A stretch of DNA of 44,392 nt, the filler included, from an uncultured Methanosarcinales archaeon (GTDB lineage Archaea > Nanobdellota > Nanobdellia > Woesearchaeales > JACPBV01): the NCBI GenBank assembly GCA_964492935.1. It is 12 parts of 12 records of this genome, joined end to end, with 100 filler letters (N's around TTAATTAATTAA, not from the genome) between each part and the next. Parts side by side here need not be neighbours in the genome. Positions count along the whole stretch, not along the records: positions 1 to 6,366 come from CAZBLF010000042.1; 11 more parts are not named here. One strand, given 5' to 3'. The first letter of the stretch is position 1. Every line of letters begins with the position of its first letter. Shown here piece by piece: positions 1 to 10,364 of the stretch. The notes beneath the pieces are model-generated. The model was not told the DNA's origin. It did not search any database and worked only from the letters and a program-made list of their open reading frames with translations. A program made the position numbers and the translations under genes.

Positions 1-163
1 CGATGTTAAATACAATAAAATTTCCATTTCTTAGACGATAAAAACGGAGGAGTTCAGTGCTACGCACATATAGTCTCCTTCGGAGAAATTTATTTTTAAT
101 TGGGGGAGTTCTTAACTAATTTGGGAGTTCCTAAAATCTATGGAGGGGGCAAGAAACAATTAA

Positions 164-172
164 ATTTATTAA
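164..172 (+). promoter_or_regulatory. Archaeal TATA box for ORF 197-943
   Basis: TTTATTAAC about 25-33 nt upstream of ATG 197; no SD, so probably leaderless. Confidence 0.45.
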
Positions 173-196
173 CATTAGAAGAATATCTATTAAAAA

Positions 197-943
197 ATGG
201 TACTAAACTGGTTTTTCAAAGATGAATTTGAACAGTTTTATAGCCGAGTTGAGAGACTACAAAAATTTCTCAGAATCGTTGACAAAGAACTACTTATTGA
301 CCATTTTGTAGAATTACGCAGACACTTCAGACAAATAAAAAGAATCCTGCCAAAACTAAATCGTCTATACCAAGAAGAACTTAAAACTGTTGAACATATT
401 CCAGAATCGGGCTACAAAGAAAAACTCAAAAAATTCTCCGTTGATTTAGAGAAAGAACTGAGTGACTTAGAAAACTGGGTAAATAATGCGCTTGCTCTAG
501 TAGCGGAAATCCTCAAAATAAGAGTATTGACACAAGTACAAGAACAAAAGCAGAAACTTAAAACAATAATCAATCATATTACCAATATCTTAATCAAAGC
601 ACAACGAGATGCTTTTGAGTTAGTCAAATTAGAGATAGCTTGGAAAAAATCAATCAAGAAAGCACATAAAAAGCCAATCACAAAAATATCAGTCGTTGGA
701 AAACTCAATAACGGTTGGCGTTTGAGTGATATTCAAAGTGTCGTTATTGATCTGGGTGGAGTTGTTGAGCCAAATCCTGGAGGCACACATCCATACAAAA
801 TTGTATTTTCCGGACATCGTTCAATTCCTTTAGCAGAATCAACTCCGCCATTTATACTCGTGAGAGAAATCAGTTCAGCAACTGGAACGGATAATAAAAT
901 TCTGATAGTGAGTTTTTCTCAGGGAGAATTAGTCGCTGCTTAA
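197..943 (+). CDS. Hypothetical protein: N-terminal coiled coil plus C-terminal HicA-like domain
   Basis: 248-aa ORF; heptad-rich N-terminus; C-terminal GGVVEPNPGGTHPYKIVFSGHRSIPL resembles the HicA G-S/T-H beta-hairpin pattern (by eye). Confidence 0.6.
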   Translation: MVLNWFFKDEFEQFYSRVERLQKFLRIVDKELLIDHFVELRRHFRQIKRILPKLNRLYQEELKTVEHIPESGYKEKLKKFSVDLEKELSDLENWVNNALALVAEILKIRVLTQVQEQKQKLKTIINHITNILIKAQRDAFELVKLEIAWKKSIKKAHKKPITKISVVGKLNNGWRLSDIQSVVIDLGGVVEPNPGGTHPYKIVFSGHRSIPLAESTPPFILVREISSATGTDNKILIVSFSQGELVAA

Positions 944-1303
944 ATATTTGCTTCTGAAAGCCTCATATTCTCTCCTTTTCCTTGCTGATACAAATGGCAA
1001 TAACGGGCCCATATCCTGTAAATTGCCCGCTTCATCACATAAAAGATAAACCTTGTCTTCTCCAGCTTTCATTCTTTCTAAATCCTGAGCATAAGTGTCT
1101 TGGTTAAAAGTAATAAGAACTTCATTTCCTTGCCCAGCAATGGTTCGAAATGCTTCTTTAACAACTTCAACTTCCAGCTGAGAAAGCGAACTTAAATTAA
1201 CTTCAGAATCTCCTATTGCTGTCTGTAATTGACTTCTCAAATATCGTAAGCTTTGATGTTGTTCATTATAAAATTTTAGTTTATCTTTTGGAATTTCTTT
1301 CAT
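929..1303 (-). CDS. Hypothetical protein, convergent with and overlapping the 3' end of ORF 197-943
   Basis: 124-aa ORF; TTTTTAAATA TATA-like box on the minus strand at 1329-1338. Confidence 0.65.
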   Translation of the reverse strand: MKEIPKDKLKFYNEQHQSLRYLRSQLQTAIGDSEVNLSSLSQLEVEVVKEAFRTIAGQGNEVLITFNQDTYAQDLERMKAGEDKVYLLCDEAGNLQDMGPLLPFVSARKRREYEAFRSKYLSSD

Positions 1304-1669
1304 GTTATATTGAATAGAAAATCATACCTATTTAAAAAGCTTTGGTTCATTTACTACCAAACAATAGTATTTCTGTTTCTCGCCTCCCTTAAATTCATGT
1401 TCTCAAAGTATGCTGACGCTCAAAAGAAAGAACGGAACTCCCCTTAATGTACTAACTAAAAGAGCCTTCGGCTAGGATAAAACAAACTCCCCCCTGCTAC
1501 TTGTTCTTGATGTAACGCTTCGCTTTCTAGATAGAACTGAACTCCCCCGGTGCTTCGCACATATACACTCCCTGCGGTCGAATTAATGGGAAATGGAAAT
1601 TTTACTTCTTCGCTCCACTTCGTTCCGCTCGACCACGTTGCACTCTCCCTACGCTTCGCTTCGGTCGGG

Positions 1670-1752
1670 GTATTTAACAGCGATTATCCGGAAAATCCCT
1701 TGCAGGAATTTTCCCAAATTGGCTACGCCAACTTCGCATAGTTGCGATGTAA
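1670..1752 (+). other. attC-like recombination site with branched terminal structure
   Basis: R''-like ATTTAAC (1672-1678); GCGATTAT pairs with ATAGTTGC (two G:T); inner hairpins GGAAAATCCCT-TGC-AGGAATTTTCC (1690-1714) and TTGGC-TAC-GCCAA (1719-1731); ends GATG|TAA. Confidence 0.65.
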
Positions 1753-2289
1753 AGAGACCATCGAATCACCGTGTGCACCTAAGACCATGCCCGTAACCGA
1801 ACTAGGCGAAACCTTTAATTCAGCTGCAATGAAATTGCGTAAGCGAGCACTATCCAAAACACCAGCCATCCCCACAACCTTTTCCTTAGGCAAACCAGAC
1901 TTCTTCAAAAACAGGTACGTCATCACATCTAAGGGATTAGTAACAATAATACAGATAGCGGAAGGAGCATGTGACTTCACAGATGCTGCAATCGAAGACA
2001 TAATGGAACTATTCTTCGCAAGCAAATCCTCCCGAGACATACCAGGTTTTCTAGCAAGTCCAGCAGTAATCACGATGAGTTCGCATCCAGCAAGACTACT
2101 ATAATCAGTACTGCCCGTTATCGTAGTATCAAACGGAAAAAGAGGACTACAACACATCATATCCAATGCCTTACCCACAACAGCATCATCGATATCAATC
2201 ATCACGATTGAAGAAACAATATTCTTTGAAGCGAGAATAAAAGCCGCAGTAGCACCTACCTGCCCTGCACCAACGAAACCAACTTTCAT
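1750..2289 (-). pseudogene. mdh: Malate dehydrogenase (LDH-like MDH), 3'-truncated after about 180 aa
   Basis: GAGQVG Rossmann motif, GLARKPGMSREDLL, NPLD, GMAGVLDSAR, GAHGDSMV. Homology stops at Leu codon 1752-1750, immediately at the attC-like site; normal length is about 310 aa. Confidence 0.85.
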
Positions 2290-2355
2290 GATCGCAGGCA
2301 AGATACAAAATATTTAAATCTATGGATTTTTATATAAAATGAAGATCCTCAGTAC

Positions 2356-2619
2356 ATGTCTAAATGCCCTGAAGAAAAAATATATAGCTTATCAGAAGCA
2401 AGGAAGATTGCCAATATCTCAAAGAGACTTGCAGAAACCATAGATCATGTAGTGAGAAGGGGATATCCGCTGCATACTATACCCAGATTGCTGGACCAAA
2501 TGACCGAATACCCCGATGTCTTTAGACCACAAATCATACCGTATCTTCATAGATTACAAGAAAACGGTAGAAAAACGTATAACCTAGAAAACTTTCTAGG
2601 TAGCACGCACCTAGATTAA
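2356..2619 (+). CDS. Hypothetical protein
   Basis: 87-aa ORF with TTTATATAA box about 25 nt upstream; stop abuts the stop of the convergent gene. Confidence 0.55.
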   Translation: MSKCPEEKIYSLSEARKIANISKRLAETIDHVVRRGYPLHTIPRLLDQMTEYPDVFRPQIIPYLHRLQENGRKTYNLENFLGSTHLD

Positions 2620-2826
2620 CTACCAATCAAGTCCTTCTAAGTCTGCTACAACCGCATCCAAATCATCAGCAAGCTCTTCGGCTAAAACGGCATTTTCCTC
2701 AGTGTCAGAACCTACCTGATTAACAAGAGCATCGCCACTTCCACTATCTGTAGCAGGTTGAGTTTCTTCAGGAACTGCACATCCGACAATAAATAAAAGC
2801 ACCAATACTGCTAGGATTCTTTTCAT
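2620..2826 (-). CDS. Small acidic lipoprotein
   Basis: MKRILAVLVLLFIVGC lipobox-type signal; overlaps the stop of the upstream gene (ATGA). Confidence 0.7.
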   Translation of the reverse strand: MKRILAVLVLLFIVGCAVPEETQPATDSGSGDALVNQVGSDTEENAVLAEELADDLDAVVADLEGLDW

Positions 2827-4310
2827 TCTGCATCCTCCTCCGATTCTTCGGAATCTTCCTCTTCATCCTCAACCAGTTCCTCATCCTCAGCACCCTCTAA
2901 GGTAGCATCGTGCTCTCGCAACCCATGGGAAATCTCCACCAACACGGAATGCGCCTCCTTAAGCTCAGACTGTGACTGCTTGTGCAACTCCTTCGCTTTT
3001 CGAATCATCTCACTCAAAGCATCTCGTTCCTCTGCAGCTACAGTAGATCCCCGTTTCGAAGCAACTTCATCCAATAACGCAACCGATTGCTCATGCAATG
3101 ATTTAGCTTCGGCAACATGCCCACTAAACGTTTCAACTAAAGTATCCAAATCCTCGACCGTTACTTCGGATTCCTCAATCCGTGCAAGAACCTTCTCCAA
3201 TTTGACCTCAAGCTGACGAGCTCGTACAATCGTTGCTTTTGATTCTGCAACAACCACACGCGCCGCACCTGCCTTTGCAACATGCGAAATTCTTTTCCAC
3301 ACCGAAGCAATTTCTTTGGCAGCCGCTCGCAATTCTTCTTTCGTAGTAGCCGCATCTGCAAGCACTAGCGCCTTAGTAACAGACCCAGCCGCATCCGTAA
3401 GTTTTGCGACTAACTCAGCAGCACGCTCCTCTTCAATTAGGTCATTCTCCTCAATCTTGGAAAGGAGCTTCTCGATATGATTCAATATACGCTCACCAGA
3501 CTTTGCAACATGCTCCTTAGCCTTGGCTAGAATCTCCTCTTCAAGTGCATCACAATCCTCAGTACATTCAGCAAGTTTCTTCTTAACATCCTCAAACACC
3601 TTTCCACGATCCTCGCCCTCAGTTTTCAAAGACTCATACCTGACTTTAGCCTCCTCATAGCGTTTCCTAGCCTGTTCTAGTTTATCAGCCGCGACATCAC
3701 GTTTCTTGACCAGGTCGTCAGCTCTCATAATCTTCAAACGAGAAATCTTCTCCTTTACTGCAGCAGCATCCTCTGATGCAAGAATTCGCTTAGCGTGTCC
3801 ACGATCAAGCTGAGCTATCTTCCGAAGCTCATCGGTAGTAAACTCATCCTTTGTAAACGCAAATGCCCGACGAGCTCTTCCTGTATCAGAGATGTGCTCA
3901 TCATCCATACGAGGAGAACATTTCTTTCTACAATCTTCCTTTTCAACTCCACTCTCAACACATTTCTCTAAACAAGTATCAACTCTAGCTGCAATAGTAA
4001 CCGGAACCGGTCTAGCCTCTCGAGTAACATGCGTATCAATATCACATTTTTTAGCACAATCCTCTTTCCCAACACCAGAATCTAAACATCTATCCATACA
4101 ACTCCGTTCACTAATAAGAACAGGCTTAGGAACCGACCTTGCTTCACGTGTAACCTCATCAGAACCAGAATCATCCTTGACATCATCAGAACTAGTAGTT
4201 CCATCACCCTCCTTTGTAGCATCAGAATCTTTACTCTCATCAGCAACCACAAAAGAAACAGAAGAAACCACAAACAACATAACCATCAATAACACGAAAA
4301 CTTTTTTCAT
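2823..4310 (-). CDS. Secreted coiled-coil protein with two Cys-rich repeats
   Basis: Signal peptide; CxxxC-x9-CxxxC repeat twice, each preceded by VTREARxVP; long helical region; acidic tail; GAGGTGA SD; homologous start at 44240. Confidence 0.85.
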   Translation of the reverse strand: MKKVFVLLMVMLFVVSSVSFVVADESKDSDATKEGDGTTSSDDVKDDSGSDEVTREARSVPKPVLISERSCMDRCLDSGVGKEDCAKKCDIDTHVTREARPVPVTIAARVDTCLEKCVESGVEKEDCRKKCSPRMDDEHISDTGRARRAFAFTKDEFTTDELRKIAQLDRGHAKRILASEDAAAVKEKISRLKIMRADDLVKKRDVAADKLEQARKRYEEAKVRYESLKTEGEDRGKVFEDVKKKLAECTEDCDALEEEILAKAKEHVAKSGERILNHIEKLLSKIEENDLIEEERAAELVAKLTDAAGSVTKALVLADAATTKEELRAAAKEIASVWKRISHVAKAGAARVVVAESKATIVRARQLEVKLEKVLARIEESEVTVEDLDTLVETFSGHVAEAKSLHEQSVALLDEVASKRGSTVAAEERDALSEMIRKAKELHKQSQSELKEAHSVLVEISHGLREHDATLEGAEDEELVEDEEEDSEESEEDAE

Positions 4311-4383
4311 TCAAATCACCTCAAAGTTGATATCTAAGGTAACCAGTATTCTCTATTTAAAAACTTTTGTAACTTCTACCGAA

Positions 4384-4734
4384 TTAAAAGCTACCAAAAA
4401 GAGCTCGCAACCGAGTAACGATCTGTACAGGAGCATTCATAATAAGTTCTTCAGTAAACCGAATCACCCGAATCCCATCCCAACCACAACTAATATCCTT
4501 AAAATGATCCTTCCACGCATTCCGATGCCAATACCTTCCATCAGCTTCTAAAGCAATCTTTCGAGAAGGAAAATAAAAGTCAAAGATGCGAACAGAACCA
4601 TTACTCAACAGTTTCTTGTATTCACAATAAAAATCCTTACCCTCAACAAACCCCAACGAAAGCAAAAAAGACAACATCTTCCTTTCCAATAGAGTACGCT
4701 TCCCCAACCGAGAACTAAAACTACCGTATCTCAA
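4384..4734 (-). CDS. DUF559 / Vsr-like (very-short-patch-type) endonuclease
   Basis: DFYFPSRKIALEADGRYWH and GIRVIRF motifs; close homologue at 43834-44178. Confidence 0.8.
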   Translation of the reverse strand: MRYGSFSSRLGKRTLLERKMLSFLLSLGFVEGKDFYCEYKKLLSNGSVRIFDFYFPSRKIALEADGRYWHRNAWKDHFKDISCGWDGIRVIRFTEELIMNAPVQIVTRLRALFGSF

Positions 4735-4925
4735 CCTTTACTCCACCACCTACCTCATACGCAACACAACCTCTTCTATTAAACATTCATGAAACACCTC
4801 AATTTCCAAAAAAATGATGAAACCCATGCATAATCCCTTTCTCTCGGTGCGTTGCAGCCGCATCCACCAACGGAAACGAATATGAGAGCCTCACACAAGG
4901 AAAGTTAAAAATTGAGGTGAAAACC

Positions 4926-5153
4926 ATGAATAAAACAAAAATAGTGAATTTAGTCGAGAGAGATTTTACGACTCTCGCAAACCTTGAGCGCAGCATTCAG
5001 TTTGCGATCAACTCGAGGAAAGGTAGGCAATACCAATACAAGGTAATGCATGCTGCCTTTAAGCGCACGTGTGATATTCTTCTGAAGAGAAGAAAATACA
5101 TTGCGAAACAGCTCGGTCGCAGACTAGAGCTGATAAAAGACCCTTCAGAGTAA
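4926..5153 (+). CDS. Small basic hypothetical protein (75 aa)
   Basis: GAGGTGA SD at 4914-4920 before ATG 4926; K/R-rich; convergent with the recombinase. Confidence 0.6.
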   Translation: MNKTKIVNLVERDFTTLANLERSIQFAINSRKGRQYQYKVMHAAFKRTCDILLKRRKYIAKQLGRRLELIKDPSE

Positions 5154-5165
5154 GGGTCTTTTTTA
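5133..5165. terminator. Bidirectional hairpin between convergent genes
   Basis: AAAAGACCCTT-CAGAGT-AAGGGTCTTTT with A/T tracts on both sides. Confidence 0.6.
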
Positions 5166-6041
5166 TTCCCCCAGCAGAGCAGGAATACCTTTCGTATGAA
5201 AATCATGCGGCAACCGAGCATAATCCAAAGTCGTCTTGCGATCAGCATGCCCCATCAATTTCTGGATAGTATCGACATCAACACCTTTCTGCATGAGATG
5301 CGTAACACAACTTGCACGCATCATATGAGGATACACGTGCATATGAATACCGGCTTTCTTAGCTGCAGTATCAACAAGTGCTTGCGCAGTTCTTCTTGTA
5401 AGGTGTCCACCAAAGCTGTTCTCAAACAAATAGACAGATGAGCGTTTTCGGGAAGCCAAATAAGACCTCATATCCGAATACAATCGAGCAGGCAGCGGCA
5501 CATACCTATCTTTATTCCCCTTTCCACGATAAATAAACAACAATCGAGCAACATCATGGATATGACCTACCTTAATCTTAACACATTCACCAACCCGAAT
5601 CCCCGTTTCATACAACAATCGAATCAACAATCGATGTTTCTCCGATCGAGTACGATTAATCATCATCCGAATCTCCTCAGTGGCCAACACCCGAGGCAAA
5701 CTCCTAGGAATCTTCGCCCTCTTAACACCAACAAACAATTTCTTCCCCATGAAACCGCTAAAATAAGATTTCAATGCACTCACTGCAAGATTAACAGTAC
5801 GCTCCTTTTTGTGCCGATCCAATAGATGAAGAAGATACCTCCTAATATCCGCAGAAGTAACAAATTTAGGCTGCTTCTTTACAAAATCCATAAATTTACC
5901 CACAGTCCAAAGATAAGAATCAATAGTATTTCTACTAAACCCCTGTAAACGCAAGTCATCCACAAAACCCGCAAACCTCTCCTTCAACCTATCCTTTTGT
6001 CTAATTCCCTTTTCTCGTTTTACCTGATGAAATGTGTTCAT
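5163..6041 (-). CDS. Tyrosine recombinase, XerA/XerD-like (292 aa), copy 1
   Basis: N-terminal SAM-like domain (LRLQGFSRNTIDSY); catalytic R (GIRVGE), K (GKGNK), HxxR (HMMR), GH and Y (TTLDY). Start moved to ATG 6041 using the GAGGTGA SD and conservation with copy 2. No IntI-type insertion. Confidence 0.92.
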   Translation of the reverse strand: MNTFHQVKREKGIRQKDRLKERFAGFVDDLRLQGFSRNTIDSYLWTVGKFMDFVKKQPKFVTSADIRRYLLHLLDRHKKERTVNLAVSALKSYFSGFMGKKLFVGVKRAKIPRSLPRVLATEEIRMMINRTRSEKHRLLIRLLYETGIRVGECVKIKVGHIHDVARLLFIYRGKGNKDRYVPLPARLYSDMRSYLASRKRSSVYLFENSFGGHLTRRTAQALVDTAAKKAGIHMHVYPHMMRASCVTHLMQKGVDVDTIQKLMGHADRKTTLDYARLPHDFHTKGIPALLGE

Positions 6042-6077
6042 TCCAATCACCTCATACATATATGACGAAGAACTCAG

Positions 6078-6116
6078 CTTATATACCCTGCGCCCGCATC
6101 TGGCAAGTGGCAAGTG
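6078..6116 (-). promoter_or_regulatory. Recombinase promoter: TATA box plus tandem CACTTGCCACTTGCCA motif
   Basis: GGGTATATAAG and CACTTGCCACTTGCCA are conserved in copy 2 (42902-42912 and 42874-42889). Confidence 0.55.
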
Positions 6117-6134
6117 CAACATGATTTTGCCGCC

Positions 6135-6238
6135 TTAACACCTTTCAAGCAAGAATTTAGCCGTCTCAGACTGGACACTGCCAAATGGCAAGTGCCCCTG
6201 AAACACCAAAACAGCGCTTAAAAGATGTTAAATACAAT
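6135..6238 (+). other. Recombinase-proximal foldable attachment site (attI-equivalent), copy 1
   Basis: TTAACACCTTTCAAGC (6135-6150) pairs 14/16 with GCTTAAAAGATGTTAA (6216-6231); central hairpin GGACACTGCCA-AA-TGGCAAGTGCCC; GTTAAAT at 6227-6233. Confidence 0.65.
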
Positions 6239-6312
6239 TTTTGAAAATGCCTAAGAATAGAAAGGGGGCTAGACTTTCCACAATTTATATAAAACCTAAA
6301 GTTTTGAATATT

Positions 6313-6349
6313 AATGAAGCTCCCAGCCGCCCCAAGGGGCGGGGTATCT
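6313..6349. mobile_element. GC-rich hairpin resembling an IS200/IS605-family or palindromic-element end, at a contig break
   Basis: AATGAAGCTCCCAG-CCGCCCC-AA-GGGGCGG-GGTATC; the contig ends 17 nt later. Confidence 0.35.
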
Positions 6350-6366
6350 AGTTAAAGCTTGCAAGC

Positions 6367-6466: not shown

Positions 6467-8352
6467 TTTTCGATGTTTACATCTTTTAGAAATGCTTTGT
6501 TTGATCTGCCTATGTAGCTGAAATTAAAGTAGAAGTATAGGTTTTCATCTCCTGAGCGTAGACGTTCTACGCTGAGGAAGGTAGGAGATTGGTATTGTGG
6601 AAGGGGCTTAGCAATGAATGAGAAGTTTCCGGAGAAGCAGGTTTCAATGGGGATTCTTAATTGTTCTGCAGATCTTCTGCCGGCTAAGTCTTGAGATACA
6701 AATAAGAGATTTGAAGTGACTGCGTTTTTAAGTCCTGCAGCATTTACCTGTGATGATTGGGGTTCGGACGTTGATTGTTGGCGTATTCTAAATGCTCCTT
6801 GGAAGATGTTTGTAATATCTACATCTTCGAACTCGAAAAGGCCATCTGCATCGGCAATCGTTTCCTCATCCGCATGCGTTGCGCATTTTTCTACTCCTAG
6901 CACGGCGAAATCGCATTTTGCTCTTAAGTCTGAGTCGCCTAATGTTTCTAGTCTTGAGGATAGGCCAGCAATTTCGAAGGTTCGGTCGAATACGTCGTTG
7001 AAAGGTGTTCGTTGGACGTACAGAAAGACTTTTGCTCCGGGTTCGGTCTTTCCGCGAATGGTTACGGCATCGGCAAAGTTTTCAAAGATTTGCTGGCCGC
7101 TTCGTGGAGAGATGATTTCTATTTCGGGTGGTGTGGTGTCGAGTAAAATTTCAAATTGTTCGCTGATTGCGTTACCACCGGGGTCGGTGGCGGTAACACG
7201 CAGCGTGTAAAATTGTTCTTCCTCTCCTAGTTGTACGGGAACGTCGAATTCTCCATTGACGACTACTGATGTGGAAATGGTTCCTACTCCGTCGAGGAAA
7301 TTAATGGATTCTGCTTCAGGGAAGTCTTTTTTGCCGGCAGGTAGGGTGGTTGCTGATAATGCTGCTGAGGAGGAGCCGATATTACCTTTATCGTCTACGG
7401 CGAAAATAGTATATGTGTAGGTGCGCTCTGAATTAACGCCGATGTCTTTGAAGGTGGTTACTTGATCATCGTCAAAGAAGATGAAGGGTTGGCCATCTCG
7501 TGAAAGGACATATCGATTGAAATCTTCATCTGTTGATTGGTTCCACGTTAGTTCGATAACATTTGCTTCGATGTCTGTGATGTTAAAGGCTACTACGGGA
7601 GCAGGAGGAACGTCATCTTCCTCTGTTTCCTCTACGGTGATTTCTAGGGTTACGGGTTCGGAAACCACTCCAATGACATGATACTCTTGTTCTGGAGCAA
7701 AGAGCGGGATGTCGGTGAGATTGAGCTCGGGAGGGATGGTGTCTACGGCGATTGAGAAGATTTTTTCGGTCTGTCTATTGTCTTTTCTTGCAATAATCTT
7801 TATGGAGTGATTTCCATCTGCTAATTCTACGTTCGAGAAGGCGAATTCTCCTTGCTGACCAGATATTCTCTCTTCTTTGAGGAAATTGTCTACTAAGAGT
7901 TGTAATTCGGTTAGTGGTGAGGTGGTACCGGGAATACTTATTGTGTTGCCTTGGTTGAAGGTAGTGGGCACGGTAGCGTTGAGGATGAATGCAGGTTGGG
8001 CGAGCGTGGTGAAGGTGAATGATGCGCCCCCATTGTTGTCTTCTACGGTTTGAGTAAGATTATTAGATGCTACCTTAAAGAGATAGGTTGTGGCTGGATC
8101 TAGGTTGTTGAGGGTGATTTCTTTATTGTTATCGAAATTGAGGGCTTGGGTTTGTGTTTGGTCTAATGCTGAAGTTCCAAAGGTTACGGTGGCGTCTGCG
8201 GACTGATCTACGATCCAGGTGATGGTTGCGGATGTGTCAGAGACTTGTGCTGCCTGGACTGAGTTTATTGACAATGCATCTACGAATGCAATGGGCATTA
8301 GGATAATTAGTTCGATGAGCAGGATTGCTAGGATTGATGTGGTTTTGTTCAT
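6467..8352 (-). CDS. Large secreted protein with fibronectin-III/Ig-like domains (3' partial)
   Basis: Signal peptide; FN3 motifs (SATITW...LDPATTYLFKV; ELTW...YTYTIFAVD); DTTPPEIEIISP Ig-like linkers. Confidence 0.85.
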
Positions 8353-10364
8353 CTTGTTAGGGTAAATTCGGGTAGTTTCTTGGAGTGTTCTGGGAGATCT
8401 GCGTAAAAGAGATAGGCATCATCGTCATCATCGAATTCTTGTTCGATGACGTTGAAGGTTACTTTATCTGCTAGTTTGAGTAGGGTGGGATCGGGAGTCC
8501 AGTTTCCGATGTAGCCGCCTTTGATGTTTTCTTCGTCGGCTAGGTAGATTTCCACACGGTAGTTGAAGCGTGATTTTGCGAGTACTTTGAGTTCGGAGGA
8601 ATCGCCTTTCTTGTGGATAGCGAAGCTTTCGAACTTTTTCTCGGGATGCACAATGGTTATGGTTGCTTGTTCTTCATCGGTTAATGCTATCGGTCCTTGG
8701 AGCTGTCCGTCTTTGAGTTTGAACTTTTTGACTTCTACAACGAGCTCTTTTATGGGTTGCATGGGCACATCATAGGTTTTGATGATTTCGGTCTGCATGA
8801 AGATCTGGCCTTCTTGGTAACCCTGCTTATTTGCTCTTAGGATGGCGTTTGTGCATTGTGGGAGCGGTACTTTGAGTAAAGGAGTGTTAGCAATATCTAG
8901 ATCTAGTCTGGTTCGGCCGATGTCGCATGAGTATCTTCCGCAAGTGAATGTGAAATTGACGTTGTTGAGTTCACTCTGCGTTTCTATATCGGATGCTTGG
9001 AGGGTCATCGTGTTTGCTCCTACGATGTCTTGGCAGTAGTCTTCACTTGTTACGGTATCTCTTTGGAATAAGGTGGTGAAGTCTCTGCTTGTTGTGTCTG
9101 GTACATTTTTGTTGATTTTTCCCATGTAGACGAAGCTGAAGGTGAAAGGGTCATTGTTGTCGGTTCTTTTATCGGAAATGGTTACTTTTATGGGGAAGAC
9201 CATGCTGTAGGTGAAGTGCCAGACTTTGAGGCAGAATGCGGAGAGGATTTGTTGACCTTTCTGGGCGTTTGCTTCTAAGATGGGGCCGCGATTAGGGGAG
9301 ACTTCTAGGATCATCGGCCACGCAGGGTCGTATTGGAAGTTGACGCTAGTTGTAGGGTATTTTTTATCGGTGACGTCCCAGACATAGTGGTAGCCGTAAT
9401 AGGAGTCTTTGTAGGTGTTTTCGATCTCTTCTTCAAGGAATTTTAGGGATTCTCGTTGTTCTGCGGTGAAGGCGAAATTGTCGATCTCTTCTTCGGTGTA
9501 CTTGCCTCTCCAATCGGGAATGGGTGTGGGGATGTACGGGATGGGTGCGTTTTCATCGTACTTGGTGTTTTCGAGCTTGATGTGGTTTAAGTTTACCATC
9601 ATTAACTTCTTTAATTTATCTTCTACTTTCGGAAGTTGCCAGATTTTCTTTCTACAGTCGACGTCGAAGCCGGTTGTCGGTAGATCAGGATCTAGGTTTA
9701 TGAGATCGATAATTCTTTCTTCGACAAAGAAGTCTTTCTTTGCTCGGTCCATGATTTCTGCAGCTAATTCGTAGACTTCGTGGAATCTGATCGGTAGGAT
9801 GACGATGTAGTTTTGTAATTGTGCAAGTGTTTTGTTGAATTTGTCTTGTACTTCTATCGGGTATGTTGTTATGATTTGGATATCTTCCTTTTTTCTGCCT
9901 TCTTTGCCTAGCGTTACTTGCACGCCTAGTTCTCCCTCGTTGAAGATTTGGAACTTGTTGTTGAAGACGGAGAAGTTGTTGAGGCAGTTGGGTAAGCCTT
10001 CTTCGATATACTCCTCGATATCTTGTTCGATTCTTGCTAAGGGAGGGATTGCCGTTATTCCGTCGAACCACCAGTAGGGGTTTCTAATCTGTTCGTTGGG
10101 TGAGTTTTGTAAGACTCTGTAGGGAGCTGCGTCGACCCAGGACGGGAAGGTAAGATAGCCGCCGTTGATGCCTGCTAGTGTTGTTGCTTCTAGTCCTAGA
10201 ATTCTGGTGCAGGATTCTACGAACTGTTGAACTGGAATTAATTCTGGGGTTACGATCTCTTTTTCAAGCTCGGATTCGGTGCCGTAGAAGGTTAAGCTAA
10301 CGTAGGTTAGCAGTATCAGTAGACCGATTACTATGAAGACTGTTATTTGACCCCTTTTTTTCAT
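8349..10364 (-). CDS. Class III (pilin-like) signal peptide surface protein
   Basis: MKKRG|QITVFIVIGLLILL N-terminus; 671 aa; ATGA-coupled to the next gene. Confidence 0.8.
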   Translation of the reverse strand: MKKRGQITVFIVIGLLILLTYVSLTFYGTESELEKEIVTPELIPVQQFVESCTRILGLEATTLAGINGGYLTFPSWVDAAPYRVLQNSPNEQIRNPYWWFDGITAIPPLARIEQDIEEYIEEGLPNCLNNFSVFNNKFQIFNEGELGVQVTLGKEGRKKEDIQIITTYPIEVQDKFNKTLAQLQNYIVILPIRFHEVYELAAEIMDRAKKDFFVEERIIDLINLDPDLPTTGFDVDCRKKIWQLPKVEDKLKKLMMVNLNHIKLENTKYDENAPIPYIPTPIPDWRGKYTEEEIDNFAFTAEQRESLKFLEEEIENTYKDSYYGYHYVWDVTDKKYPTTSVNFQYDPAWPMILEVSPNRGPILEANAQKGQQILSAFCLKVWHFTYSMVFPIKVTISDKRTDNNDPFTFSFVYMGKINKNVPDTTSRDFTTLFQRDTVTSEDYCQDIVGANTMTLQASDIETQSELNNVNFTFTCGRYSCDIGRTRLDLDIANTPLLKVPLPQCTNAILRANKQGYQEGQIFMQTEIIKTYDVPMQPIKELVVEVKKFKLKDGQLQGPIALTDEEQATITIVHPEKKFESFAIHKKGDSSELKVLAKSRFNYRVEIYLADEENIKGGYIGNWTPDPTLLKLADKVTFNVIEQEFDDDDDAYLFYADLPEHSKKLPEFTLTR

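Follow-up and report, generated by a model that had tools for sequence, protein, structure and literature searches.

How do two small convergent genes come to lie between six nested pairs of inverted arms? The question arises at positions 1-1749 of the window, by which we mean the whole 44,392-nucleotide (nt) stretch of DNA analysed here, taken from a metagenome-assembled genome (MAG) of an uncultured archaeon of the Woesearchaeales (GCA_964492935.1). A first-pass annotation, made from the sequence alone, had read the arms as the ends of a gene cassette that zip together around its genes. We suggest that the unit at 6-1749 is probably a mobile cassette of an integron-like system of XerA type, and that its arms are what insertion left of one extended fold-back recombination site, one half at either end. 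The MAG comprises 1.15 Mb in 57 contigs and is 84.8% complete. The window consists of small contigs joined by runs of N, and its positions 1-6366 are the complete contig C42. As position 1 is an end of that contig, the assembly cut off the left border of the unit. The first five letters (CGATG) are identical to 1745-1749, a start that fits a break of the assembly within a high-copy site.

Inverted arms at the ends of the unit

Five of the six arm pairs were recovered by a repeat search. Arm A spans 1-13/1670-1682 (13 nt, 92%, including 5-13/1670-1678), arm B 16-30/1590-1604 (15/15), arm C 45-62/1532-1549 (18 nt, 89%, including 45-58/1536-1549), arm D 102-110/1485-1493 (9/9) and arm E 123-131/1434-1442 (9/9). 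Arm F (145-158/1374-1387) matches at 12 of 14 positions by eye and enters the seed chain as the exact 7-mer 152-158/1374-1380. The nested order holds as first described. A colinear chain of exact inverted seeds covers 53-60 nt, which none of 1000 dinucleotide shuffles equalled at k=7, 8 or 9 (shuffle means 4.9-24.4, maximum 54), and a direct, non-inverted comparison of the same flanks yields chains of only 10-24. The fold proposed at first pass, joining 1-190 with 1310-1750 on the plus strand under DNA parameters, has an interaction energy of -33.5 kcal/mol compared with -10.9 +/- 2.9 kcal/mol in shuffles (0/135, z -7.7). The total energy of this cofold has a z of -5.0, and its minimum-energy structure includes the arms. 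The motif GGGAGTTC is found five times in the 44-kb window against 1.02 expected, with four of the five copies within the flanks. Because motifs of this type occur three times per side, the three motif arms can pair in more than one register; 102-111, for instance, also pairs 10/10 with 1539-1548.

Inverted arms beginning at a contig end, in a window of concatenated small contigs, could arise by chance or as an assembly artefact. This explanation is rejected by the seed-chain and cofold shuffles, none of which match the observed values. The flanks are also retained in an independent 1780-nt metagenome contig (L006), which has both the arm D and the arm E boxes on either side. The region is further spanned by contigs from four marine or vent metagenomes (four studies) that were aligned on 1-2400.

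Small hairpins with TTCG-type loops are located between the arms. Compensatory changes are found in 2 of 16 sequences for hairpin H1 and in 4 of 16 for H2, and the pairing of H3-H5 is retained through sequence change, as judged by eye. The stems of H5 vary but pair (GGTTTTCCG/CGGAAAAC, TTTTCCCA/TGGGAAAA and CTTTACCC/GGGTAAAG). If folded, the region would take the shape of an interrupted stem with branches, not that of a plain hairpin. Covarying hairpins could also be a feature of RNA, with the flanks being non-coding RNA genes or structures of untranslated regions in which the long-range complementarity does its work. We regard this as very unlikely. No Rfam family was detected in the flanks at E-values up to 10 (1-2400 on both strands, with four weak matches elsewhere), and the RNA fold of 1304-1760 is no better than shuffles on either strand (z 0.29 and -0.43). 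The arm sets are upstream of convergent genes, and a single transcript would contain both only by read-through of both genes. Each start codon is also separated from the arms by a TATA-like box.

The 280 nt at 1460-1740 contain eight copies of the pentamer CTTCG and three of GCTTCGC. The opposite strand of the latter, GCGAAGC, is a sequence that we take to form a very stable DNA mini-hairpin.

The right border and the core recombination site

The unit is followed by a malate dehydrogenase gene fragment (mdh') that matches only positions 4-185 of the 313-position malate dehydrogenase model. An intact mdh is found on contig C38, and the nucleotide homology of C42 to it stops at 1752. L006 is 86% identical over the unit, matches up to 1750 and then diverges. 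The right border is placed at 1749/1750 because of this divergence and the end of the mdh homology. The junction between site and mdh' is spanned by independent contigs in three metagenome runs: X2, X5 and, with a variant contig, X1.

The border coincides with a core site of integron-like layout. In integron attC sites, the inverted R'' and R' boxes follow the consensus RYYYAAC and GTTRRRY. The window carries ATTTAAC at 1672-1678 and GTTAAAT at 5-11, L006 carries ATATAAC and GTTATAT, and similar pairs are present in at least 14 sites. The core layout is shared with at least 14 sites elsewhere, with L stems of 8-12 bp that differ in sequence and keep their pairing. Pairs at L position 2 are CG in four cases, GC in six, TA in one and AT in one, and at position 3 they are AT in four, GC in seven and TA in one. 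The asymmetry of the spacers is constant, R'' being followed by 1 nt and R' preceded by 3 nt, and no bulged bases were seen in the L stems. Short forms of the site (30-34 nt; L025, L038 and L022) have 10-nt inverted arms around about 8 nt, and long forms have 60-170 nt between the arms. The L006 site folds at -32/-34 kcal/mol (z -7.8/-8.5), with perfectly complementary boxes. The window's own L stem contains eight Watson-Crick pairs, three G-T pairs and one mismatch (by eye, compared with L023). A geometry-based site finder applied to the MAG returned 40 hits compared with 51 in shuffled sequence and hence detected no further sites; it also missed this weakened site.

The R' box of the window (GTTAAAT) is absent after 1749, where mdh' starts, and is located at the start of the cassette, after CGATG. 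The placement of R' and R'' is that expected of an integron-type cassette with a crossover between the G and the TT of R' (G/TT), and accounts for arm A. The outermost arm, listed at first pass among the nested arms, is no new feature but the ordinary R'/R'' relation of integron-type cassettes.

Distribution of the flanks and cassette arrays

A BLAST survey with 1304-1760 against 401 sampled genomes of the same order found matches to some part of the query in 166 genomes, including the source genome. Matches often number several per genome and are clustered within a few kb. Module M1 (1430-1607, about 180 nt) is 77-87% identical in 14 loci of other genomes. The right-hand arms belong to a module common to many genomes and the left flank pairs equally well in trans, so these arms are not special to the unit. 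Three of the genomes involved are unpublished, namely G244 (L022, a copy of arm B before another gene), G452 (L033, which supplies a row of alignment A6 and counts among the 14 M1 loci) and G333 (L017, one small ORF1 relative). No main conclusion hinges on them.

The core site is the highest-copy part of 1-2400 in the four metagenomes. Summed contig depths, in run order, are 585/474/179/270 at 1681-1760, 197/101/36/65 at 1-80 and 13/6/8/7 over most of the genes (0 to 7 in X5). The repeat begins exactly at R'', because several different sequences precede 1672/1673. Several different sequences also precede position 2 in metagenome contigs. Within the MAG, neither an 11-mer census nor a blastn search of C42 against all contigs recovered a second copy of either flank. 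At locus L026, 1633-1749 continues directly into 6-103 (80.5% identity over 221 nt) between two convergent genes, with no match in that locus to the open reading frames (ORFs) of the unit, ORF1 and ORF2. The two ends of the unit are thus one contiguous element elsewhere.

Arrays are apparent in relatives. A single 15.5-kb contig (L039) carries at least eight same-polarity sites and three tandem 249-nt empty cassettes. At L043, the cassette GTTAGTTTCA...CGAAACTAAC is enclosed by a second matched pair, CGAATAGAAC/GTTCTATTCA, and these nested R pairs are the footprint of an insertion into a resident site. On C42 itself, a 4.5-kb block with xerA lies between one complete cassette and the initial 139 nt of a second one. 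The first-pass view of the unit as a cassette is borne out by its border at the G/TT of a hairpin site, the same-polarity arrays in relatives and the R match between its own ends.

The tandem cassettes of L039 are located at 7888-8639 (G240:C24), are 99% alike and each contain a hairpin site with R boxes TTCTAAC/GTTAGAA. No ORF of at least 90 amino acids (aa) is present in the 2.3 kb around them.

Own-end arms in related cassettes

Complementarity between the two ends of the same cassette was compared across 11 complete cassettes, seven from L039, two from L043, one from L040 (40Y) and the window's own, on four contigs of three genomes. The R' of a cassette matches its own R'' at 9 of 10 positions in six of the seven L039 cassettes, in 40Y and in the window, compared with only 5-8 of 10 for the R'' and R' of the same core. 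With the R boxes removed, the longest exact own-end matches are 12, 13, 13, 8, 17, 14, 8, 14, 15, 15 and 15 nt, against a mean of 8.16 nt (sd 1.30, maximum 13, n=110) for non-own end pairs. Own-end arms of 12-17 nt, unrelated in sequence, are present in 9 of the 11 cassettes. Ranked by chain score among the 11, the own end comes first in six cassettes, second in two and third in one. In 40Y, the places of arms B and C are taken by TCGAATTTTCA and AAAGAGTTGGGGGCG, which are unrelated to the arms of the window and complementary between own ends; the arm at the place of C is a different 15-nt sequence. The positions of the arms are similar among cassettes. The start of arm B lies 12 nt past the G of R' in cassettes 39a, 39b, 39c, 39g and 43a as well as in the window, and B' ends 50-74 nt before R'' in six cassettes. 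Arm B is identical after the xerA-side site of G240 and after a core in L022. The first-pass annotation had offered as its other option that the GGAGTT boxes are protein-binding sites. For arms B and C, the unrelated sequences at the same places speak against a protein that recognises a specific sequence.

Folding of junctions gives a similar picture. The circle junction, in which the own ends of a cassette are joined, is 15.1-28.8 kcal/mol more stable as a DNA fold than the array junction in eight of nine cassettes, with a gain of -15.1 kcal/mol for the window and one exception in 39d (+2.8). Array junctions, the two flanks of one core, show no mirror symmetry (mean 33.0 vs 28.3 for mismatched pairs, sd 10). 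The first-pass annotation had proposed to test whether arms covary among cassettes with other cargo, and at the level of the family they do, including the folding of circle junctions. Its claim that the ends are complementary well beyond a local attC hairpin is likewise upheld by the shuffles and the own-end arms.

The recombinase and its adjacent site

The only tyrosine recombinase gene on C42 is xerA, which scores 213.9 bits with the XerA_Arch model NF040815 (cut-off 220). The integron integrase model TIGR02249 (IntI) aligns to it in two stretches (7-182 and 235-298), with model positions 183-234 left out. In all five genomes searched, matches to TIGR02249 are below cut-off (best 127 bits vs 265), with the MAG being 84.8% complete. 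The integron integrase that an integron reading would imply was not found in these genomes, and the linked recombinase scores as XerA-type.

An attI-like site is located about 100 nt upstream of the xerA start and is followed by the apparent start of another cassette. The same site adjoins the xerA copy on contig C57 and, at a contig end, the xerA of G240, where the letters after the site equal arms A and B of the window. A related form of the site is found beside xerA in the single-contig genome G220, in which the search with the IntI model gave that one candidate gene only. The combination of xerA, a GATG/TTAAAT-type site and a cassette start is hence present on four contigs (C42, C57 and those of G240 and G220).

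The region at 6078-6197, overlapping the xerA start, contains TGGCAAGTG motifs and is a dispersed repeat, because 72-96% matches are located on seven other contigs of the MAG (C27, C3, C6, C36, C16, C8 and C9). The block of mdh, a gene for a secreted coiled-coil protein, a DUF559 gene and xerA is found twice in the bin (1752-6242 vs C38 and C57) at 65-81% nucleotide identity. One copy (C38 plus C57) has an intact mdh and the other (C42) a truncated one, so that the block was duplicated or the bin combines two related populations.

A proposed recombination site divided by insertion

We suggest that cassettes would be joined at a site of the form R''(..TATTTAAC)-A-L''...L'-GAT-R'(GTTAAAT..), with strands crossing at G/TT. 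The stem of this site would continue past the R box through arms B and C, and here also D-F, broken by small local hairpins. When a circular cassette inserts, the 5' arm and the hairpin tip would come to lie at the cassette end (1374-1749) and the rest of the 3' arm at the cassette start (5-158). Insertion would split the palindrome because the crossover lies within the long stem, and the nested inverted arms would be the product of this split. A complete and well-pairing site would then form only with own ends joined, either in the excised circle or by pairing across the cargo in single-stranded DNA (ssDNA). The arms might thereby serve the folding of the site in single-stranded or extruded DNA, with the circle as the preferred substrate and XerA as the enzyme. 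They could stabilise the site of the free cassette for XerA-type capture at the xerA-side site, and poorly folding hybrid array junctions could keep inserted cassettes in place. The private own-end arms and the better folds of circle junctions indicate halves of a palindrome that closes over the crossover and not over the genes. The first-pass picture of a long interrupted stem formed by the cassette ends stands as far as the extended complementarity is concerned, and its closing point is best read as the recombination junction, as seen contiguous in L026. Each cassette might even carry a private address, with its own complementary arms flanking the recombination box so that only its own ends build a fully folded substrate. 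We put forward this extension tentatively and at less than even chances.

Several observations weigh against a split recombination site. Module U (57-101) is a direct repeat, so the flank region is no simple palindrome. The core of the window is weakened and its proper R' is replaced by mdh' (GTAAAGA), and this copy is probably degenerate and may be inert. The aligned contigs of the four metagenomes include no 1749-to-6 joint, and no recombination event or ssDNA form was observed. Two other joints in metagenome contigs, 31-to-1582 and 76-to-1665, rest on sides of 22-26 letters, a length that allows no interpretation. The window's left flank chains with M1 of seven other loci at 42-63 (including 63, 54 and 49) vs 50 with its own end. 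The window cassette alone gives no covariation, because its arms are the common type of the family and pair equally or better in trans. The 11 cassettes are drawn from four contigs of three genomes only, and among them 39d and 39e have no private arms, with the start of 39e copying that of 39c. It is the gene neighbourhood that makes XerA seem to be the enzyme of the cassette system. Elsewhere, M1 lies 130-260 nt upstream of unrelated large genes, and arm F adjoins a TATA-like box on both sides.

Arms D-F, which the window shares with L006, may be promoter-proximal modules, either besides or in place of being parts of the site. Extended to all arms, the flanks could be mirrored promoter leaders. 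A leader composed of motif boxes, F box and TATA would then precede each convergent gene, its motif order, read from either end, would look like nested inverted arms, and the arms would have no pairing function. The GGGAGTTC boxes would then be sites of a regulator or accessory protein. Arm F is directly upstream of the TATA-like box of ORF1 and F' is about 35 nt upstream of that of ORF2 (by eye). In other genomes, M1 with F' precedes HsdR-like, PLD/SNF2-like, MmeI-like and unknown genes at the distances given above, and F' is conserved as GTTTTCTCGCCCC in several loci. The box sequences are almost invariant across 16 sequences, with spacings (51, 54, 55 and 21 nt) close to whole helical turns. 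We nevertheless consider leaders an unlikely explanation overall, as they leave unexplained the R boxes of arm A, the unrelated arms at the same crossover distances in other cassettes and circle-junction folds that are better by 15-29 kcal/mol. The start-side arms of 40Y lie at the 3' end of a gene and not at a promoter, and L007 keeps the gene pair at 85% protein identity with none of these flanks.

At L030, L031 and L034, the first gene past the M1 leader is a short ORF with a start (e.g., MESKNITLKVNSELYDKYREICKQEGW in L031) that appears ribbon-helix-helix-like by eye. The short ribbon-helix-helix-like ORF precedes large restriction- or helicase-type genes in L031 and L034.

Inverted ends with three copies of a 9-nt motif per side are also reminiscent of a non-autonomous transposon mobilised in trans, similar to miniature inverted-repeat transposable elements or to elements with Tn7/Mu-type subterminal repeats. 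The unit encodes no transposase of its own, interrupts mdh and is high-copy in metagenomes. A transposon is highly improbable, as the borders fall at the G/TT of a hairpin site found in same-polarity arrays, the ends are contiguous elsewhere without cargo and the conserved repeat starts at R'' (1672/1673) and not at the outermost arm. No candidate transposase gene was seen on the contig, for which no dedicated search was made, and the left-hand junction, the place to look for a target-site duplication, is missing from the contig. A split recombination site in a mobile cassette is hence the reading that we carry forward.

Relation to known recombination systems

Archaea, with a few Woesearchaeales among them, are known to carry integrons with IntI and attC as well as CALINs (Ghaly et al. 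2022, PMC9668308). Four core motifs are absent from the two text supplement files of that study, a comparison that spans these files. The system described here resembles integrons in its promoter-independent units in same-polarity arrays, its empty cassettes and, apparently, its array head, where an attI-like site accompanies the recombinase gene. The site is likewise an imperfect palindrome that has the boxes R''(..AAC) and R'(GTT..) and a variable tip and keeps the structure of its L stem but not the sequence, and the crossover at G/TT means that the cassette start carries an R' matching its own R''. Unlike in integrons, the linked gene scores as XerA and has no IntI-specific insert, the spacers are 1 nt and 3 nt, and no classical extrahelical bases were seen in the L stem. 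Short duplex-type forms of 30-34 nt exist, and cassettes have long non-coding ends and their own promoters. The stem further runs 60-150 nt past the R box as private arms, with the crossover inside the palindrome and not at its base.

Housekeeping-type Xer recombinases are borrowed, as XerA may be here, to move DNA by CTX phage (attP), by integrative mobile elements exploiting Xer (IMEX) and by pdif modules of Acinetobacter plasmids, all with a dif-like site as here. The sequence GATGTTAAAT presumably resembles the XerD arm of E. coli dif. In CTX phage, the fold-back of ssDNA builds the site. Xer sites flank each pdif module, a small unit whose cargo is often a toxin-antitoxin pair, and the cassette here is small as well. 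In contrast to XerC/XerD, a single archaeal XerA is found here, and the sites of pdif modules alternate in polarity whereas the arrays here have one polarity. The likely crossover lies inside the R arm, and private nested arms do not seem to be described for Xer-exploiting elements in the portions of the literature covered. The dif site has a 6-bp centre with an 11-bp arm on each side (Cortez et al. 2010, PMC2958812), and the dif oligonucleotide of P. abyssi given in the same source shares only an ATATAA-type arm flavour. An 11-6-11 layout occurs neither in the short nor in the long forms of the site described above.

Attachment sites of the lambda type (attP) are large composite sites in their free form, and integration sends their two arms to opposite ends of the insert. 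Repeated short boxes oppositely oriented on the two arms are a shared feature. No arm-binding domain or Xis-like gene was identified here, and the arms of other cassettes differ yet stay complementary, which points to pairing and not to a common binding protein. Neither XerA-linked cassette arrays nor cassette-private extended arms were found described in the full-text literature searched. In a review of archaeal tyrosine recombinases (PMC8371274), the terms DPANN, cassette, hairpin and IMEX do not occur.

Integrons are the textbook case of cassette capture, and the origin of attC and the formation of cassettes are open questions. A related logic appears to be present in very small archaea, apparently without an integron integrase, with parts of the site module in about four of ten sampled genomes of the order. 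Cassettes carry defence-type and unknown genes. Private arms predict that the excised circle, and not the array junction, is a good substrate. Free circles would then be strong capture substrates and array junctions weak ones, and ssDNA pairing of own ends would select exactly one cassette for excision. Such arms would provide a protein-free control of direction and precision for a cassette system run by a housekeeping XerA. These archaea would hold a widespread Xer-driven counterpart of integrons with a new kind of site logic, linking chromosome-dimer resolution (Xer/dif) with integron-type recombination. The arms would also help to find cassettes that might escape attC detectors based on sites from bacteria.

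Organisation of contig C42

The features of the contig are listed in Table 1. The repeat that defines module U (D2, 57-78/1550-1571, same orientation) is 86% identical in the repeat search. The stems of its mini-hairpins covary in a set of 16 sequences. The module also occurs in other contexts, as indicated by loose contig ends at 55-57 and 112 in the four metagenome runs.

Table 1. Features of contig C42 (window positions), with arms marked by a prime lying on the right-hand side.
Feature	Position	Strand	Description
CGATG	1..5	+	Tail of the preceding recombination site: spacer GAT and G before the crossover
R' box GTTAAATACA (arm A)	5..14	+	9/10 complementary to R'' 1669-1678; likely crossover between 5 and 6
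Arm B TAAAATTTCCATTTC	16..30	+	15/15 with 1590-1604
Arm C GGAGGAGTTCAG...	45..62	+	18 nt, 89% with 1532-1549
Module U	57..101	+	Mini-hairpins GTGCTACGCAC (57-67) and CTCCTTCGGAG (75-85), then AAATTTATT; direct copy of 1550-1590
Arms D (102-111) and E (123-131)	102..131	+	GGGAGTTC boxes
Arm F GGGGGCAAGAAACA	145..158	+	Directly upstream of TATA-like box 161-174 (by eye)
ORF1	197..943	+	248 aa; four-helix bundle and small alpha/beta C-terminal domain (model)
ORF2	929..1303	-	124 aa; convergent with ORF1, 15-nt overlap
Arm F'	1374..1387	+	Upstream of TATA-like box of ORF2, about 1327-1340 (- strand, by eye)
Module M1	1430..1607	+	E' 1434-1442, D' 1485-1493, C' 1536-1549, B' 1590-1604; small covarying hairpins between
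CTTCG-rich insert	1605..1668	+	64 nt between B' and R''; hairpins H4 and H5 at the equivalent place in other loci
attC/dif-like core site	1669..1749	+	R'' GGTATTTAAC 1669-1678, A, L'' GCGATTATCCGG 1680-1691, hairpins, L' TCGCATAGTTGC 1734-1745, GAT, G 1749
Variable hairpins of the core site	1690-1714 and 1719-1731	+	Between L'' and L'
mdh'	1750..2301	-	Truncated malate dehydrogenase gene; abuts the crossover point
xerA	5163..6122	-	XerA-type tyrosine recombinase (profile search)
attI-like site and start of another cassette	6205..6366	+	GCGCTTAAAAGATG/TTAAATACAAT, crossover about 6227/6228; cassette start runs to contig end

Cargo genes

ORF1 has 20 homologues, all from uncultured archaea and none with a precomputed Pfam domain. 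The ten homologues of ORF2 are also from uncultured archaea only, and contigs of identical length (13928, 10493, 2149 and 1539) appear in both match lists. Neither ORF has a Pfam or NCBIfam match at curated cut-off. The structural model of ORF1 has a predicted local distance difference test (pLDDT) score of 84.4, and that of ORF2 a score of 73.7. Fold searches (Foldseek, VIA-align) retrieved generic helical bundles only for ORF1 and no match for ORF2. No ORF1 relatives were found among viral contigs. Among GTDB-representative contigs, the ORF1 relative is one contig with a 33-residue fragment. At the start of contig L005 (1-99), a 33-residue fragment is 94% identical to residues 19-51 of ORF1 before the match ends.

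The C-terminal domain of ORF1 also occurs outside the fusion, because stand-alone frames of 87-124 aa in L013, L015, L016, L017 and L018 (genomes G136, G159, G191, G333 and G365) match this domain only (E 1e-8 to 8e-4). The C-terminal 87 aa and four small stand-alone relatives have no Pfam or NCBIfam family, and a likeness of the domain to HicA is speculative. At L012 (892-1710, G162:C2), the shared flanks are absent, ORF1 is cut to its last approximately 140 residues with one in-frame TAA, and ORF2 is intact. The pair of genes thus exists outside a recognisable cassette too.

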